Source: an uncultured Chloroflexia bacterium
GTDB lineage: Bacteria; Chloroflexota; Limnocylindria; Limnocylindrales; CSP1-4
Assembly: GCA_963768655.1 (NCBI GenBank)
Contig: CAVYIM010000004.1
Coordinates: forward strand, 736,001 to 800,000
Length of the DNA: 64,000 bases
Direction: 5' to 3'
Shown here piece by piece: positions 41,721 through 48,292 of this stretch; the first letter of the stretch is position 1, and each line of letters opens with the position of its first letter. Under the pieces are notes generated by a model. That model did no database searches. It was given only the letters and a program-made list of their open reading frames with translations, and was not told where the DNA came from. The translations under genes and the position numbers were made by a program.

Positions 41721-41984
41721 ATGAAGCTGCACGAGTACGAGCCGGTCGAGGGAGAGTCCAAACCCCGCGCCGTGCACCGCGAGGGATCGTCTGTGCTGAC
41801 CTGCGCCGCCTGCGGCTGCCGCCTCCTCGCCCGCGAATCTCTGCCGGACGGCGGCGGCTACGGCCCGGACGCGGCCTGGCGCCATTACCACGGCAACACC
41901 CAGGAGACGGACGCCCGGGGCTGCCGGGTCGTGTGCGTTGATCGCCCGCACCGCACGATCCCGGTGGAGCAGCTCGCCTCCTAG
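41721..41984 (+). CDS. small Cys/His-rich putative metal-binding protein (87 aa)
   Basis: CAACGCRL...W.H...DARGC...C...H; GGTGG RBS; TAGTCT -10-like site at 41663. Confidence 0.65.
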   Translation: MKLHEYEPVEGESKPRAVHREGSSVLTCAACGCRLLARESLPDGGGYGPDAAWRHYHGNTQETDARGCRVVCVDRPHRTIPVEQLAS

Positions 41985-42094
41985 CGCCACGCGCCGCGCC
42001 GCCACACGCCGCCACGCACCGGGCCGCCACGCCGGCACGCGCCCGGCCGCCACGCGCGCGCCGCGCCACACTGCCGGTCCCGCCACCCGAGCCC

Positions 42095-42184
42095 CGTCCT
42101 GAACGGCAACCGTCGCGCCACCGCAGCGCCACCGCCGGGTCACTCGACCGGTACTGATTCGGGCGAGCTCGCTACGTACGCTTC
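42095..42184 (+). promoter_or_regulatory. conserved nitrogen-regulon promoter cassette, copy 1 (amt1)
   Basis: CGTCCTGAACG, then GCAAC/GCCAC/GCCAC/GTCAC at 42106, 42117, 42128, 42139; CTGATT(42154)-N17-TACGCT(42177). Confidence 0.85.
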
Positions 42185-42241
42185 GGCCGGCCGCATCGAC
42201 ACGGGTCGTTTGCTGCGGCGTGGAGCGAAGGAGACAACAGC

Positions 42242-43483
42242 GTGAACCCCGCCTCGAGCGCCATCAACTCCGGCGACACCGCCTGGGTCCTGACCTCGGC
42301 CGCGCTCGTCATGCTCATGACGCCGGGCCTGGCTCTGTTCTATGGCGGCCTTGTCCGCCGCAAGAACGTGCTCAGCACGATCATGCACAGCATCTTCATC
42401 CTCGCCCTGGTCAGCGTGACATGGGTTCTGGTCGGCTTCACGCTGGCCTTCGGCAAAGACGTGAACGGCTGGGGAATAATCGGCGGCCTCGACTTCGTCG
42501 GCCTGCGGGGCGTCGGCAAGGATCCGCTCACGCAATACGCGCCTAGCATTCCCGGTTCCGCCTTCATGGCCTTCCAGATGATGTTCGCCGTGATCACGCC
42601 GGCCCTCATCACCGGTGCCTTCGCCGAGCGCAAGCGCTTCAAGGCTTTCGTGCTGTTCTCGCTGCTGTGGACGCTCATCGTCTATTCGCCGATCGCCCAC
42701 TGGGTCTGGGGCGAAGGCGGTTGGCTCCGCAACCTGGGCGTCCTCGACTTCGCCGGCGGCACAGTCGTCCACATCAGCTCGGGTGTCGCGGCCCTCGTCG
42801 CCGCGCTGGTCCTTGGACCGCGGGTCAAGCGCGAGTCGGACCGCTTCGAGCCGCACGACGTCCGCCTGACGGTCATCGGCGCGGGCCTGCTCTGGTTCGG
42901 CTGGTTCGGCTTCAACGGCGGCTCCGCCCTGGCGGCCAACGGCACTGCCGCCAACGCGTTCGTCGTTACGAACACGGCCGCCGGCATGGCGGCCCTCACC
43001 TGGGTCACGATGAGCTGGCTGCACAAGGGCACGCCGAGCGTCGTGGGCGCCGTCGCGGGCGGCGTCGCCGGTCTCGTGGCCATCACCCCCGCGTCGGGGT
43101 TTGTCGACGCGAGCGCCGCGATCATCATCGGCTTCGCGGCCGGTGCGGTCTGCTACAGCGCCATCCTGCTGCGCGAGCGGCTCAAGATCGACGACGCGCT
43201 CGATGTCTGGGCGGTCCACGGCGTCGGCGGCACGCTCGGCGCGATCCTGACGGGTGTATTCGCCGTGGCCGCGGTCGGCGGCGCGTCCGGCCTCGTCGAC
43301 GGCAATCCCGGCCAGGTCGGAACGCAGCTGGTGGCTGTGGCCGCGACCTGGATCTACAGCGGCATCGCCACCTTCATCATCCTCAAGGTAGTCGACTTCT
43401 TCGTCGGGCTTCGCGTCGACGAGGCCGAAGAGGAAGCGGGCCTGGACTCCTCGCAGCATGGCGAGGTGGCCTGGCAGCTCTAG
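42242..43483 (+). CDS. amt: ammonium transporter
   Basis: MTPGLALFYGG, FQMMFA, DFAGGTVVH, WFGWFGFNGGS, DDALDV..VHG, EEAGLD..QHGE. Confidence 0.96.
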   Translation: MNPASSAINSGDTAWVLTSAALVMLMTPGLALFYGGLVRRKNVLSTIMHSIFILALVSVTWVLVGFTLAFGKDVNGWGIIGGLDFVGLRGVGKDPLTQYAPSIPGSAFMAFQMMFAVITPALITGAFAERKRFKAFVLFSLLWTLIVYSPIAHWVWGEGGWLRNLGVLDFAGGTVVHISSGVAALVAALVLGPRVKRESDRFEPHDVRLTVIGAGLLWFGWFGFNGGSALAANGTAANAFVVTNTAAGMAALTWVTMSWLHKGTPSVVGAVAGGVAGLVAITPASGFVDASAAIIIGFAAGAVCYSAILLRERLKIDDALDVWAVHGVGGTLGAILTGVFAVAAVGGASGLVDGNPGQVGTQLVAVAATWIYSGIATFIILKVVDFFVGLRVDEAEEEAGLDSSQHGEVAWQL

Positions 43484-43620: not shown

Positions 43621-43710
43621 CGTCCCGAACGACAACCCTCGCGCCACCAGAGCGCCACCCGAGGGTCACTCGGTCGTAACTGATTCCCGACGCCTCGCTC
43701 CATACGCTTC
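43621..43710 (+). promoter_or_regulatory. conserved nitrogen-regulon promoter cassette, copy 2 (amt2)
   Basis: CGTCCCGAACG, then ACAAC/GCCAC/GCCAC/GTCAC at 43632, 43643, 43654, 43665; CTGATT(43680)-N17-TACGCT(43703). Confidence 0.85.
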
Positions 43711-43767: not shown

Positions 43768-44994
43768 GTGATCAATGGTGGCGACACCGCCTGGGTATTG
43801 ACCGCCACGGCGCTGGTCATGTTGATGACGCCCGGTCTGGCCCTCTTCTACGGTGGCCTGGTCCGCCGCAAGAACGTCCTCAGCATCCTCATGCAGTGCA
43901 TGTTCATCCTCGGCCTGGTCAGCGTGACCTGGGTGCTGGTCGGCTACACCCTGGCCTTCGGGCCGGACGTCAACGGCTGGGGCATCATCGGCGGCCTGGA
44001 CAACATCGGCCTCAAGGGCGTCGGTATCGCTCCGGGCCCGTACGCGGCGACCATCCCGGCGACCGCGTTCGCGCTGTTCCAGATGATGTTCGCCATCATC
44101 ACCCCGGCCCTGATCATCGGCGCCTTCGCCGAGCGCAAGCGCTTCAAGGCCTTCGTCCTCTTCGCCTTGCTGTGGAGCCTGCTCGTCTACTCGCCGATCT
44201 GCCACTGGGTCTGGGGCGAGGGCGGCTGGCTGCGCAACATGGGCGTGCTCGACTACGCCGGCGGCACGGTCGTCCACATCAGCTCCGGCGTCGCGGCCCT
44301 GGTGGCGGCGCTCGTCCTGGGCCCGCGCGTCCGGCGCGAGTCCGAGCGCTTCGAGCCCCACGACGTCCGGCTGACGGTCATCGGCGCCGGCATCCTGTGG
44401 TTCGGCTGGTTCGGCTTCAACGGCGGCTCGGCGCTCGCCGCGAACGGCCTCGCCGTCAATGCGGTCCTGGTGACGAACACCGCCGCCGGAATGGGCGCGC
44501 TGACCTGGATGACGATGAGCTGGCTGCACAAGGGTTCGCCGAGCGTCATCGGCGCCGTGTCGGGCGCGATCGCCGGCGAGGTCGGCATCACGCCGGCCTC
44601 CGGCTTCGTCGACCCAAGCTCCGCAATCCTGATCGGCTTCATCGCCGGCGTCGTCTGCTACAGCGCGATCCTGCTGCGCGAGCGCATGAAGATCGACGAC
44701 GCCCTAGACGTCTGGGCTGTCCACGGTGTCGGGGGCACGCTGGGCGTCCTGCTCACCGGCGTCCTGGCGACGACCGCTGTGAATACCGTGGGCCGGGGCT
44801 GGATCGACGGCAACTTCGGCCAGATCGGCATCCAGCTCGTCGCCATCGTCGCCGTGTGGGTCTACAGCGCGGTGGCGACCTTCGTGATACTCAAGCTCGT
44901 GGACGTGGCCGTGGGGCTCCGAGTCGGCGAGGCCGAGGAGGAGGCCGGGCTGGATGCCAGCCAGCACGGCGAGACGGTCGCCTTCCAGAACTGA
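43768..44994 (+). CDS. amt: ammonium transporter paralog
   Basis: Same motifs as the upstream paralog, with DYAGG and GAIAGEV variants. Confidence 0.96.
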   Translation: MINGGDTAWVLTATALVMLMTPGLALFYGGLVRRKNVLSILMQCMFILGLVSVTWVLVGYTLAFGPDVNGWGIIGGLDNIGLKGVGIAPGPYAATIPATAFALFQMMFAIITPALIIGAFAERKRFKAFVLFALLWSLLVYSPICHWVWGEGGWLRNMGVLDYAGGTVVHISSGVAALVAALVLGPRVRRESERFEPHDVRLTVIGAGILWFGWFGFNGGSALAANGLAVNAVLVTNTAAGMGALTWMTMSWLHKGSPSVIGAVSGAIAGEVGITPASGFVDPSSAILIGFIAGVVCYSAILLRERMKIDDALDVWAVHGVGGTLGVLLTGVLATTAVNTVGRGWIDGNFGQIGIQLVAIVAVWVYSAVATFVILKLVDVAVGLRVGEAEEEAGLDASQHGETVAFQN

Positions 44995-45296: not shown

Positions 45297-45324
45297 AGTG
45301 GGCTCGCGAATGCGCCGTGCCGTG

Positions 45325-45393
45325 GTCGCGCCGCCGTCGCGCCCGGGTCGCGCCGCCGTCGCGCCCGGGTCGCGGGTCCGCGCCTGGGTCGCG
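45325..45393. repeat. tandem GTCGCGCC(CGG/GCC) repeats
   Basis: 11/22-bp units GTCGCGCCGCCGTCGCGCCCGG. Confidence 0.6.
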
Positions 45394-45404
45394 AACGGGC
45401 GAAA

Positions 45405-45494
45405 CGTCCCGAACGGCAACTGTCGTGTCACCGGAGCGTCACCGAAAGTCCACCCTCGCGCTACTGATTTGGGCCGACTCCTTCCATAGACTTC
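45405..45494 (+). promoter_or_regulatory. conserved nitrogen-regulon promoter cassette, copy 3 (small peptide gene)
   Basis: CGTCCCGAACG, then GCAAC/GTCAC/GTCAC/TCCAC at 45416, 45427, 45438, 45449; CTGATT(45464)-N17-TAGACT(45487). Confidence 0.85.
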
Positions 45495-45547
45495 CAGTCA
45501 ATGAAACGGGACCGAGGGTCCCAGAGCTCAGCCGAAGGAGCTAAGAA

Positions 45548-45631
45548 ATGATCGTCGCAGCCGCTTTCCTCAGTTTCGGTCTCCTGGTCGTGGCCTGGTT
45601 CGTCGCTCCGTCCCACGCGGCGGCCGAGTAG
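45548..45631 (+). CDS. 27-aa single-pass membrane peptide MIVAAAFLSFGLLVVAWFVAPSHAAAE
   Basis: GAAGGAG RBS 7 nt upstream; GC3-biased codons; own promoter cassette and terminator; below the ORF-track size cut-off. Confidence 0.75.
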   Translation: MIVAAAFLSFGLLVVAWFVAPSHAAAE

Positions 45632-45725
45632 CAGCGGTCGTTTCCGCGGCCTCGACCGGTAGCAGTGCCGGTCTCCCGGGCGCCTCGCCTCTGACGCGCC
45701 ACCCAACAGGCAAACCCACACGCCG

Positions 45726-45768
45726 GCCCGCGCACCTTTTCGGCAGGTTGCGCGGGCTTCGTGTTTGT
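45726..45768 (+). terminator. intrinsic terminator after the peptide gene
   Basis: GCCCGCGCACCT...AGGTTGCGCGGGC followed by TTCGTGTTTGT. Confidence 0.7.
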
Positions 45769-45951
45769 GGGCGGCGGGGGACCCCACGGAATCCGGAGGC
45801 GCGGCGCCAACCATCCCGTCATTTACCAACGGGGGCAGCACGAGAATGACTTCTCGGGCAAGATCGCGGACCCACCCAAATCCTGCGGCGACGTCAGGGC
45901 CTCCAGGTTCTGGGAGCCGCCGCTAGGTTCGCGGGCCGGCCGGGCCCCGCG

Positions 45952-46040
45952 CCGCCGCCCGATCGCGCCAGTGCCGCCGCCCCGGCGCCCGATCGCGCCA
46001 GTGCCGCCGCGCCGCGCCCGCGCCACGCGCCAGTGCCGCG
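45952..46040. repeat. direct repeats downstream of the response regulator
   Basis: CGCCCGATCGCGCCAGTGCCGCCGC twice plus a partial third copy. Confidence 0.6.
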
Positions 46041-46099
46041 CCCCACGCAACGCGCCGCCGCCCCGCCCCCCTGCCGCCCCCGCCGCTCGGCGCCGCGCG

Positions 46100-46813
46100 T
46101 TACTCCACGTCTTCGAGCCGGTAGCCCACGCCGCGGACCGAGGCCGGCACCGGCGCGCCGGACTCCTCCAGCTTGGAGCGCAGGCGTGCCAGATGAGGTT
46201 TGAGCCACTGCGGATCGGGGTTCGGCTCACCGGGCCAGCCCGCGGCGAGCAGCGAGCTGTGCGAGACCACGTGGCCGGCCGCGGCGACGAGCGAGGCGAG
46301 CAGGCTGTACTCGGTGCGGGTCAGGACGAGCTCCGCGCCGGCGACGGAGGCTGTGTGGCGGCCGCGGTCGAGGACGATCGAGCCCCACCGCAGCTCCCCG
46401 GCGCCGCGTGGCTCCGCCTCGTTGCCGCGTCGGCGCATCACGGCCCGGATGCGGGCCAGCAGCTCCTGCTTGCCGAACGGCTTGACCACGTAGTCGTCCG
46501 CGCCCGTGTCCAGCGCCTCGACCTTGGCGCGCTCGTCGGCCTCGCCCGTGAGGACGATGATCGGCGTCTGCGACATGCGCCGGATAGCGCGGCAGACCTC
46601 GACGCCGTCGAGCCCGGGCATGGCCAGGTCCAACAGCACCAGGTCCGGGCGTTCCTCGGAGAAGCGGCGCAGCGCGGCGTTGCCGTCGTACGCGGTGACG
46701 ACGCGATGTCCGGCGCGACCGACCAGGGCCGACACGGCGCCCACCATGGCCGGCTCGTCGTCGACGACGAGGATCAGCAGGCTCGCCTCCGTCACCGGAC
46801 CCGTGGTGCTCAA
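46100..46813 (-). CDS. OmpR-family response regulator (KdpE/PhoB-like)
   Basis: LVVDDE, VLLDLAMP (Asp intact), GADDYVVKPF, LTRTEY, LARLRSKL, VRGVGY. Confidence 0.92.
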   Translation of the reverse strand: MSTTGPVTEASLLILVVDDEPAMVGAVSALVGRAGHRVVTAYDGNAALRRFSEERPDLVLLDLAMPGLDGVEVCRAIRRMSQTPIIVLTGEADERAKVEALDTGADDYVVKPFGKQELLARIRAVMRRRGNEAEPRGAGELRWGSIVLDRGRHTASVAGAELVLTRTEYSLLASLVAAAGHVVSHSSLLAAGWPGEPNPDPQWLKPHLARLRSKLEESGAPVPASVRGVGYRLEDVE

Positions 46814-46861
46814 CTTGTGGCCTCCGCTCCAATCTGCGCTGACGCGCTGAGCTGCCCTTCG

Positions 46862-48292
46862 CTACCCGTCCGAGCCGGCCTCGGACATGACGCCGGCCTC
46901 GGGGCCGTCGCCGTCCCCCGAAGTGTCGCGCATCTCGGGCACCGCAACCATAAAGCGACTGCCGCCGTACCCATTTGATTCCAACCAGACACGTCCGCCC
47001 ATAGCGTTCATGAGCCGCCGGGCCGCGTAGAGCCCGATTCCGGAGCCTCTCGGTCGCGTCGCCGTCCGGACATACGCGTCGAAGACCGACTGCCATTCGG
47101 CCTCGGGGATCCCGGGCCCGTCGTCGGTGACGTAGATCCTGACTTCGCCATCCCCTCGCGATGCCCCGACGCTGACCGACCCGCCGTCGGGCGAATACTT
47201 CACCTCGTTCTCCAGCAGATGCTCCAGGACCTGGCGGAAGCGCCCCTCGTCGCCCACGCCCATCAGCTCCTCCCAGGTGCCGGTGCGGCGCAGCGGATGC
47301 TCTCGCAGCAGCGGCGACATCTCGCCGATCGTGTCGTTCACGGCGCGAGCGACGTCGAACGGGAGCCGCGCCAGACCCGCCGCCAGTCCCTCGCCGCGGA
47401 CCGATGCCAGGATCGAATCCACCAGCCGATCCAGGCGCGTCACCTGCCCGATCGCCTGGCTGCGCCACTCTTCGACGAGCGTCGGGTCGGGCCCGGCGCC
47501 GCTGCCCGCAGCGTCGGCGGCCGCGTCCGACAGCAGATCCACATACGCCCGCACGACCGCCAGCGGCGTCCGCAGCTCGTGCGTCACGACCGCCAGCAGC
47601 TCGGCCCGGGCGCCGTCGAGAGCCGTGAGGGTCTGGAGCTGCTCTTCCGCCTCGGCCTGGAGCCGCCCTTTCTCGACGATGCCGCCCAGGAGCGCCCCGA
47701 TCGTGACCAGGAACTCGACCTCCTCCGGGGAGAAGAGGCGGGTTTCGATCGCCTGGACGTTGATGACGCCGATGATCGTGTCGTTCCACGGCAGCGGCAC
47801 CGAGAGCATCGAGACGAACTGCGACTGGTCGAAGCCGGGCACCCACTTGAAGCGCGGATCGACCCGAACGTCGGGCGAGGCGACCGGCCGGCCGAGCATC
47901 GCGGCGCGACCCGTCAGGCCTTCGCCCAGGCCCAGCGTGACGCGTCCGATCTGATCGCGGTCGAGGCCGTTCGTGGCGGCCAGCCGAAGGCACGACTCGT
48001 CGCGCTCCATGAGGTAGACGGAGCAGACCTCGACGTCCAGGGCGGTCGTGGTTCGATCCACGATCGTCCGCATCAGCTCGTCCCAGTTGCGCGCCGTGGT
48101 GAGCAGCTTGGCGAACTCGTGCAGGAACTCGAGCTCGCGCAGCTTGCGCTCGGCGTCGAACGGCGCGTCGACCTTCGGGCCCGAGAGTCCGGTCGAGCCC
48201 GGAGGTCCTTCCGGCTCGAGTCCCTGAGCAGTGGCAGGTGCGGGCTCGGGTCGCGGGCCGCGCTCGCTTTGCTCGCCTTCGGGCCCGTTCAT
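46862..48292 (-). CDS. soluble GAF-domain sensor histidine kinase
   Basis: GAF (EVCSVYL...ATNGL...GEGLTG...PRFK), THELRTPL, LLENEVKYS, DDGPGI, GSGIGL; no TM segment; 2-nt gap after argG. Confidence 0.9.
   Translation of the reverse strand: MNGPEGEQSERGPRPEPAPATAQGLEPEGPPGSTGLSGPKVDAPFDAERKLRELEFLHEFAKLLTTARNWDELMRTIVDRTTTALDVEVCSVYLMERDESCLRLAATNGLDRDQIGRVTLGLGEGLTGRAAMLGRPVASPDVRVDPRFKWVPGFDQSQFVSMLSVPLPWNDTIIGVINVQAIETRLFSPEEVEFLVTIGALLGGIVEKGRLQAEAEEQLQTLTALDGARAELLAVVTHELRTPLAVVRAYVDLLSDAAADAAGSGAGPDPTLVEEWRSQAIGQVTRLDRLVDSILASVRGEGLAAGLARLPFDVARAVNDTIGEMSPLLREHPLRRTGTWEELMGVGDEGRFRQVLEHLLENEVKYSPDGGSVSVGASRGDGEVRIYVTDDGPGIPEAEWQSVFDAYVRTATRPRGSGIGLYAARRLMNAMGGRVWLESNGYGGSRFMVAVPEMRDTSGDGDGPEAGVMSEAGSDG

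Follow-up and report, generated by a model that had tools for sequence, protein, structure and literature searches.

Organization of the amt locus

The window, by which we mean the whole 64,000-nucleotide stretch of DNA analysed here, carries two ammonium transporter genes, amt1 and amt2, followed by a very short open reading frame (ORF) and by a convergent OmpR-type regulator and kinase, beyond which lie argG, argR, argB, argJ and argC; argH lies upstream of amt1. The preliminary description of this DNA had singled out the short ORF as an unannotated membrane micro-protein gene, and our reading agrees with it in position and product length of 27 residues, with an ATG start on the plus strand (Table 1). 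Its codons are GC3-biased as described (21 of 26, or 0.81), which in a window of 69% GC is weak evidence when taken alone. The single transmembrane helix was likewise borne out, with a Kyte-Doolittle maximum of 2.53 over 19 residues and an AlphaFold2 helix for a homologue from one of the related loci (L067; pLDDT 93-95 over residues 1-20). With one membrane helix and fewer than 50 residues, the product has the dimensions of a small membrane protein. GC-rich short tandem repeats flank the promoters and the end of the regulator gene, at 45305-45384 (11-bp period), 41989-42058 and 45943-46098.

Table 1. Features of the amt-peptide-regulator region, in window coordinates
Feature	Position	Strand	Basis
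amt1, ammonium transporter without signal peptide, inferred partner	42242..43483	+	Pfam PF00909, TIGR00836
amt2, ammonium transporter without signal peptide, inferred partner	43768..44994	+	Pfam PF00909, TIGR00836
Operator and promoter of the same type, before amt1	42095..42182	+	repeat, matrix
Operator and promoter of the same type, before amt2	43621..43708	+	repeat, matrix
Operator of the ORF, six pentamers with 11-bp period	45405..45464	+	repeat, matrix, relatives
Sigma70-like promoter, CTGATT, 17 nt, TAGACT	45464..45492	+	inferred from conservation
Short 5'-UTR hairpin, GGGACC-GAG-GGTCCC	45508..45522	+	by eye, most loci
Extended ribosome-binding site, CAGCCGAAGGAG	45529..45540	+	identical in 32/35 loci
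27-aa single-helix membrane protein gene	45548..45631	+	ATG start, translation, relatives, hydropathy, AlphaFold2
Terminator-like hairpin, loop complementary to the gene's own ribosome-binding site	45725..45757	+	93% identical across loci
OmpR/PhoB-family response regulator, inferred activator of the operator	46100..46813	-	best NCBIfam MtrA, below cut-off
Soluble GAF-HisKA-HATPase kinase, inferred glutamine sensor	46862..48292	-	GAF close to PtsP (EI-Ntr) GAF

A conserved family of single-helix membrane proteins

Relatives of the locus were retrieved from GTDB genomes through alignment of the kinase, which gave 72 loci. Wherever a last copy of the promoter element follows amt, the same ORF follows that copy (37/37 cases, in 36 loci and the window), with a length of 27 residues in 32, 26 in four and 39 in one, and all of these sequences are distinct. 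A profile of the 37 ORFs recovered the member in L047, seven distant homologues of 36-46 residues and a second, 32-residue copy in L045, at E values from 1e-5 to 0.6, each of them immediately 3' of an amt. Over 20 core codons in 38 sequences the pooled pairwise dN/dS is 0.18 (0.08-0.33 in a codon bootstrap over 19 of the 20), 18 of the 20 columns are variable at the third position, and the other frames range from 1.5 to 3.9 except for the antisense mirror frame at 0.28, which has stops in 3; the pairs are phylogenetically non-independent, and the contrast between frames is nonetheless clear. The ORF is therefore under frame-specific purifying selection, and its start, ribosome-binding site and stop are conserved. 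Had it not been conserved, as the preliminary description allowed, the transcript could have been a small RNA; the ORF is conserved in all 37 loci with the third promoter, and we reject the sRNA-only reading because a dN/dS of 0.18 demands a protein. On these sequence comparisons, the ORF at 45548-45631 is a real, conserved protein gene.

Protein searches widened the family considerably, giving 352 matches at E<=10 among 3467 candidates and 112 representatives (50% identity) at E<=0.001. The names of the matches go no further than "hypothetical", and both JGI and NCBI annotate family members as hypothetical proteins; a few matches are repeat proteins or mis-called starts. Among 23 members searched, none matched an NCBIfam model and one matched Pfam, at E=0.065 only, so that no Pfam family was assigned; the best hit of a PDB sequence search had E=0.73, again with no PDB family, and Foldseek returned no match of the helix to the PDB. 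Look-up in the ESM Atlas gave unnamed clusters only, plasmid searches with two distant homologues as queries gave no match, and longer or fused forms were absent at E<=1, which is weak evidence. The curated models of the AcrZ, MgtS, MgtR, KdpF and CydX families did not match the peptide. The peptide belongs to a small membrane protein family that is real, conserved and uncharacterised, and that no curated model covers.

Family members form integral helices in proteins of 26-46 residues, and their conservation is concentrated on one side. In an alignment of 115 homologues, the majority of whose rows were chosen by profile, F9, W16 and P20 (L067 numbering) never vary and A5 and L12 hardly do; the five positions are A6, F10, L13, W17 and P21 in the window peptide. 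Conservation recurs with a 100-degree period (p=0.0004, 5000 permutations), and one face of the helix is therefore a likely contact surface. The N-terminal flank is negatively charged in 63/115 homologues and positively charged in 0/115, and the six residues past the proline are positive in 62/115 and negative in 23/115, which suggests an N-out/C-in orientation by flank charge. The remaining tail is short, variable and devoid of any ligand-sensing motif.

A shared operator, promoter and ribosome-binding site

The preliminary description had credited the ORF with its own promoter cassette, and this cassette proved to be the third copy of a repeat of about 92-100 nt, with copies at 42095, 43621 and 45405 that precede amt1, amt2 and the ORF. 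A matrix built on the two amt copies only scored the ORF copy at 65 bits and the next best at 0.9, and with a second matrix, built from 43 amt-side copies, these copies and the 37 peptide promoters outscored every other one of 2.41 million positions. The operator of the ORF consists of the pentamers CGTCC, GCAAC, GTCAC, GTCAC, TCCAC and GCTAC, within which an exact GTnAC-n6-GTnAC falls at 45427-45442. This exact form occurs in the window and in 14/37 promoters, and the looser GnnAC-n6-GnnAC, the pentamer GCAAC and the ending of each of the last five pentamers in AC are each found in 37/37 peptide promoters. The operator core also precedes a glutamate-synthase-type gene in six distant loci, with a Pfam check made on the L067 gene. 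A strict promoter scan made no call at the ORF, and a consensus fold of the 5' UTR, with 3 pairs only, did not recover the short hairpin listed in Table 1.

The ribosome-binding site is common to the three genes as well. The sequence CGAAGGAG stands at 42226 for amt1, 43753 for amt2 and 45533 for the ORF, in agreement with the preliminary description, and has six occurrences in the window with both strands counted; among relatives it is found in 23/55 amt upstream regions, compared with counts of 0-2 in every one of the 13 other gene classes. By sequence, the shared operator and operon-like spacing mark the peptide gene as co-regulated with the transporter, and amt1, amt2 and the peptide gene read as being under copies of one operator.

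Downstream of the gene, the proposed terminator corresponds to a 12-bp hairpin and T-rich tail some 95 nt past the stop, present in 35/37 loci and missed by the consensus scan. The hairpin is conserved at 93%, the coding sequence at 75% and the 3' UTR at 29%. Pairing of the hairpin loop with the ribosome-binding site has a median energy of -14 kcal/mol; in full-length folds, in a model that leaves loop-loop kissing outside its scope, the hairpin stays shut and the median long-range pairing probability is 0.0. The window yielded no Rfam hit at gathering scores; near the gene there was one chance-level match (E=0.2).

The adjacent regulator and kinase

The convergent pair at 46100-48292 (-) is conserved in 72 loci, usually beside amt, gltB-type or arg genes, and named homologues of the kinase come from Ca. 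Limnocylindrales; the host of the window DNA is itself a member of this group, in the Chloroflexota. The kinase has no membrane helix, with a maximum hydrophobicity of 1.29, and among solved structures its GAF domain is nearest to an unnamed conserved-domain protein (E=2e-20), followed by two PtsP GAFs (E=2e-16 and 3e-16). The GAF of EI-Ntr binds glutamine (PMC4848567). The regulator was also considered as a GlnR and rejected, its score against the GlnR N-terminal model (GlnR_1st) being 18.3 bits against a cut-off of 27 (E=0.002). Probably, the six-pentamer promoter is read by the adjacent OmpR regulator together with the PtsP-like GAF kinase; we infer that the pair senses nitrogen status and activates the operator, and regard it as a candidate nitrogen two-component system of Limnocylindria. 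In L032 and L039 the arg genes, amt and the peptide are all missing and the kinase and regulator are kept.

The candidate regulon would comprise the GAF kinase, the OmpR regulator, the six-pentamer operator, amt and the gltB-type gene along with three small proteins, and would belong to an uncultured lineage of Chloroflexota with genomes from peat, soil and groundwater. An 87-aa Cys/His-rich ORF lies at window 41721-41984 (+) and matches neither Pfam nor NCBIfam; its family pattern recurs in 18 loci and the window, and its ESM Atlas look-alikes are unnamed, with recognition below the usual range. A further conserved ORF of 56 aa, without Pfam match, follows the peptide gene in L060, L063, L067 (18362-18532 +) and L070, four distant loci in which the gene order is gltB-amt-peptide-56 aa. 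In many close-clade loci, and absent from the window, a cydAB and cydDC-type operon follows the regulator, examples being L011 (12543-18371, +), L005, L008 and L009. A leader-peptide role for the ORF was considered and dropped because the cydAB- and cydDC-type genes that come next in many loci lie on the other strand.

Linkage of the peptide gene to amt

Among the 72 loci, the peptide gene stands beside amt in 43 of the 48 that carry an amt; in one further locus it lies at a contig end with no amt in view. The ORF starts 15-40 nt past the amt stop, with its own ribosome-binding site, in L060, L063, L067, L070 and the second L045 copy, and in one protein match (P0322) the C-terminus of an Amt reads into a more distant family member. 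In four loci, viewed from the regulator as far as argH, MFS or ppk2, amt and the peptide are both absent; as evidence for linkage this joint absence is weakened by the possibility that each is a single block deletion, since the two genes adjoin. Another 13 open-ended loci show neither gene, and six have no regulator in view.

No peptide was found within the fetched DNA of five amt-bearing loci (L048 and L050-L053). Their Amts carry an N-terminal signal-peptide-like segment that is absent from the peptide-linked Amts, and in the tree, which includes four of the five, they make up a clade of their own (branch 0.91, support 100/100). This separate Amt type occurs exactly where the peptide is missing; a literature search, of partial coverage, found no account of signal peptides on Amts. 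In the same five loci an ORF of the 87-aa type sits 3' of amt, behind the operator core.

A predicted complex with the Amt trimer

Structure prediction with Amt was carried out on two copies of the L067 Amt with their own 36-aa peptide, as a stand-in for the window pair, because the window peptide is shorter than 30 residues. The complex scored 0.63 and the best of three controls, whose partners need not have been membrane helices, 0.00, which passes a mark reached by 116/157 solved complexes and 2/215 mismatched pairs, a rough guide here given our own alignments and three chains. Runs agreed in at least 76% of contacts, and the pLDDT of the partner was at least 63. In the model the peptide contacts one subunit at residues 241-256 and 281-290 and its neighbour at 55-59 and 129-136, segments that we assign by sequence to M7, M9, M2 and M4; the contacts of lowest error involve peptide residues 5, 12 and 16, all on the conserved face, and the orientation agrees with the charge rule. 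The model predicts that the peptide binds Amt in the lipid cleft between subunits. The cleft between M2/M4 and M6/M7 is described as lipid-bound in NeRh50 and AmtB and as filled by M0 in RhCG (bioRxiv 10.64898/2026.09.17.752382, PMC10794816). M0 fills this cleft, so the success of the model may owe something to a likeness to M0, and may partly reflect a general liking of hydrophobic helices for the site.

Conservation of the Amt surface matches the predicted interface. The contact residues M241, T248, G255, I286 and L136 are kept in 44/44 peptide-linked Amts and changed in 3/3 peptide-less Amts aligned, and both window Amts retain the held residues. At 12/29 contact positions and 29/366 others, all three aligned peptide-less Amts have residues never seen in the 44 peptide-linked ones. 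Of the positions at which the peptide-less type differs, 10/16 contact positions and 15/87 others are kept across both peptide-linked clades (p=4e-4). The peptide-less Amts form one clade, so that the contrast amounts to a single phylogenetic comparison and Fisher p-values overstate its independence. At the equivalents of M241, T245, T248 and S283, a reading by eye finds other residues in A. fulgidus Amt-1 and E. coli AmtB, whose solved structures show no such partner.

Proposed role and alternative readings

We consider it probable, at about 0.6, that the peptide serves the Amt trimer as an accessory subunit. When nitrogen runs short, the OmpR regulator would be phosphorylated by the soluble GAF kinase, bind the 11-bp repeats and activate amt1, amt2 and the peptide gene together. 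The helix is predicted to be inserted N-out/C-in, with its A-F-L-W-P face packed against M7/M9 of one Amt subunit and M2/M4 of its neighbour in the lipid-facing cleft between them, and with up to three peptides per trimer. Filling of the cleft might then stabilise the trimer or tune transport, as proposed for RhCG M0, and this last step is the least certain; from co-induction and the analogy with M0, a stabilising effect is favoured over a negative one. The preliminary description had suggested that the peptide may regulate or stabilise Amt in place of GlnK. Its general idea is carried forward by the conserved gene, the amt promoter and the predicted binding, and its "in place of GlnK" stays conjectural: the peptide is predicted to sit in a cleft within the membrane, and GlnK acts as a plug of the cytoplasmic pore (PMC10710835).

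The same predicted binding is compatible with a peptide that occupies this cleft as a negative regulator, either an inhibitor or an MgtR-like proteolysis adaptor acting when nitrogen returns. MgtR offers a precedent (PMC10710835), a crude PII motif is missing beside amt, and the C-terminus is Ala-Ala, an element of ClpXP degrons (PMC7142297), in 86/95 and 52/94 members of 33-70 aa in two match lists; yet this ending occurs in 0/38 close-clade peptides, the window peptide included, the short variable tail has no ligand-sensing motif, the predicted site lies clear of the pore, and a promoter common with amt fits a helper more simply. We therefore hold negative regulation to be unlikely, though worth keeping in view. 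Rather less likely is a nitrogen-starvation peptide whose function is independent of Amt, for example a type I toxin-like brake on growth or a partner for another membrane protein. Its size and hydrophobicity, the possession of a promoter and terminator of its own in the close clade, and a loop complementarity to the ribosome-binding site that recalls the 5'-3' sequestration of type I toxin mRNAs (PMC8594479) would suit this role. Against it stand the operon-like place behind amt in five loci, the matching conservation on the Amt surface, a fixed chromosomal position beside the arg genes, a long-range pairing probability of about 0 in full-length folds and the occurrence of an antisense -35/-10-like site, by a crude pattern, in 0/35 loci.

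A regulatory RNA role for the transcript, as a second or even its main function, with the hairpin loop base-pairing to CGAAGG ribosome sites on its own or the amt mRNAs, would account for a hairpin better conserved than both the coding sequence and the 3' UTR and for the enrichment of CGAAGGAG at amt genes. This reading appears very improbable: selection demands a protein, the loop pairs weakly with the sites at amt, in most cases at about -7 kcal/mol, Rfam offers no match, L044 and L049 show no compensating loop change for their altered ribosome-binding sites, and covariation gives little support because the stem barely varies. The least probable of all is that the peptide feeds back on the neighbouring kinase, as the preliminary description's feedback on the system might imply, or is a CydX-like subunit of the facing cytochrome bd operon. 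The peptide gene does adjoin the two-component genes in all loci, and cydAB/cydDC-type genes converge on it in many close-clade loci. Feedback is nevertheless unlikely because the kinase is soluble and lacks a membrane helix, the cyd genes lie on the opposite strand and are missing beside the peptide in the window and many loci, and the peptide has no CydX-type family match.

Building on the accessory-subunit reading, we tentatively propose, at somewhat short of even odds, that such peptides are free-standing "M0 helices": membrane subunits from a separate gene that fill the inter-subunit cleft of bacterial Amts (3:3) and are made together with them under a glutamine-sensing GAF-kinase/OmpR system, in Chloroflexota without an amt-adjacent glnK. 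A literature search of partial coverage found no such Amt-linked peptide, and a predicted wedge between transporter subunits would be an undescribed way to support or tune ammonium uptake.

Comparison with known systems

The regulatory arrangement recalls the actinomycete GlnR regulon, in which an OmpR-family regulator acts and GTnAC-n6-GTnAC-like boxes precede amt and gltB-type genes, the consensus in S. venezuelae being GTnAC-n6-GTnAC (PMC3087709). It differs in that the regulator sits beside a GAF kinase, is nearer to MtrA/RegX3 and faces an operator of six pentamers. Like GlnK/PII, the peptide is the product of a small, amt-linked gene under nitrogen control, presumed in its case; PII is a soluble trimer of a fold of about 112 residues whose T-loop plugs the pore, whereas the peptide is a 27-aa hydrophobic helix with neither similarity nor a Pfam match to PII, and the crude motif for a PII signature was found in none of the 72 loci nor in the window. 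The Amt regulators tabulated in the accessible part of PMC10710835 are PII proteins only. sP36 of Methanosarcina mazei is another small protein of nitrogen control that binds an Amt, as is predicted for the peptide; it has 61 residues, is cytoplasmic under nitrogen limitation, and as a hexamer bridges GlnK1 to the cytoplasmic face of AmtB1 (PMC10714827), a description that sets it apart from an integral helix predicted in a bilayer cleft. The Amt regulators described in these sources, PII/GlnK and sP36, are soluble, and the proposal, if true, would mean that Amt is also controlled from within the membrane.

KdpF is a small membrane protein of the transporter-binding kind. So are AcrZ, which binds AcrB, MgtS, which binds MgtA and PitA, and MgtR and MgtU, which bind MgtA/B (PMC10710835). 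The peptide resembles these four in being a single helix within the range of 26-50 aa, in its expected co-expression with its transporter and in its predicted packing on the membrane surface of that transporter (PMC10710835); it differs in having no match to their sequence families and in having an Amt trimer as its target. It most likely works like AcrZ, MgtS or MgtU, outside their families.

The M0 helix of human RhCG is N-terminal, and its orientation is opposite to the inferred N-out orientation of the peptide. M0 (TM0) lies in the monomer-monomer cleft of an Amt/Mep/Rh trimer, where the peptide too is predicted to lie, and has been proposed to stabilise the trimer (PMC10794816, bioRxiv 10.64898/2026.09.17.752382). 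M0 is part of the Rh chain, whereas the peptide helix is encoded by a gene of its own. The peptide would be a parallel to Rh chains with their built-in helix, and a dedicated cleft subunit would provide a 27-aa reagent that, together with point mutants, allows a direct test of what the cleft does for trimer stability and transport.
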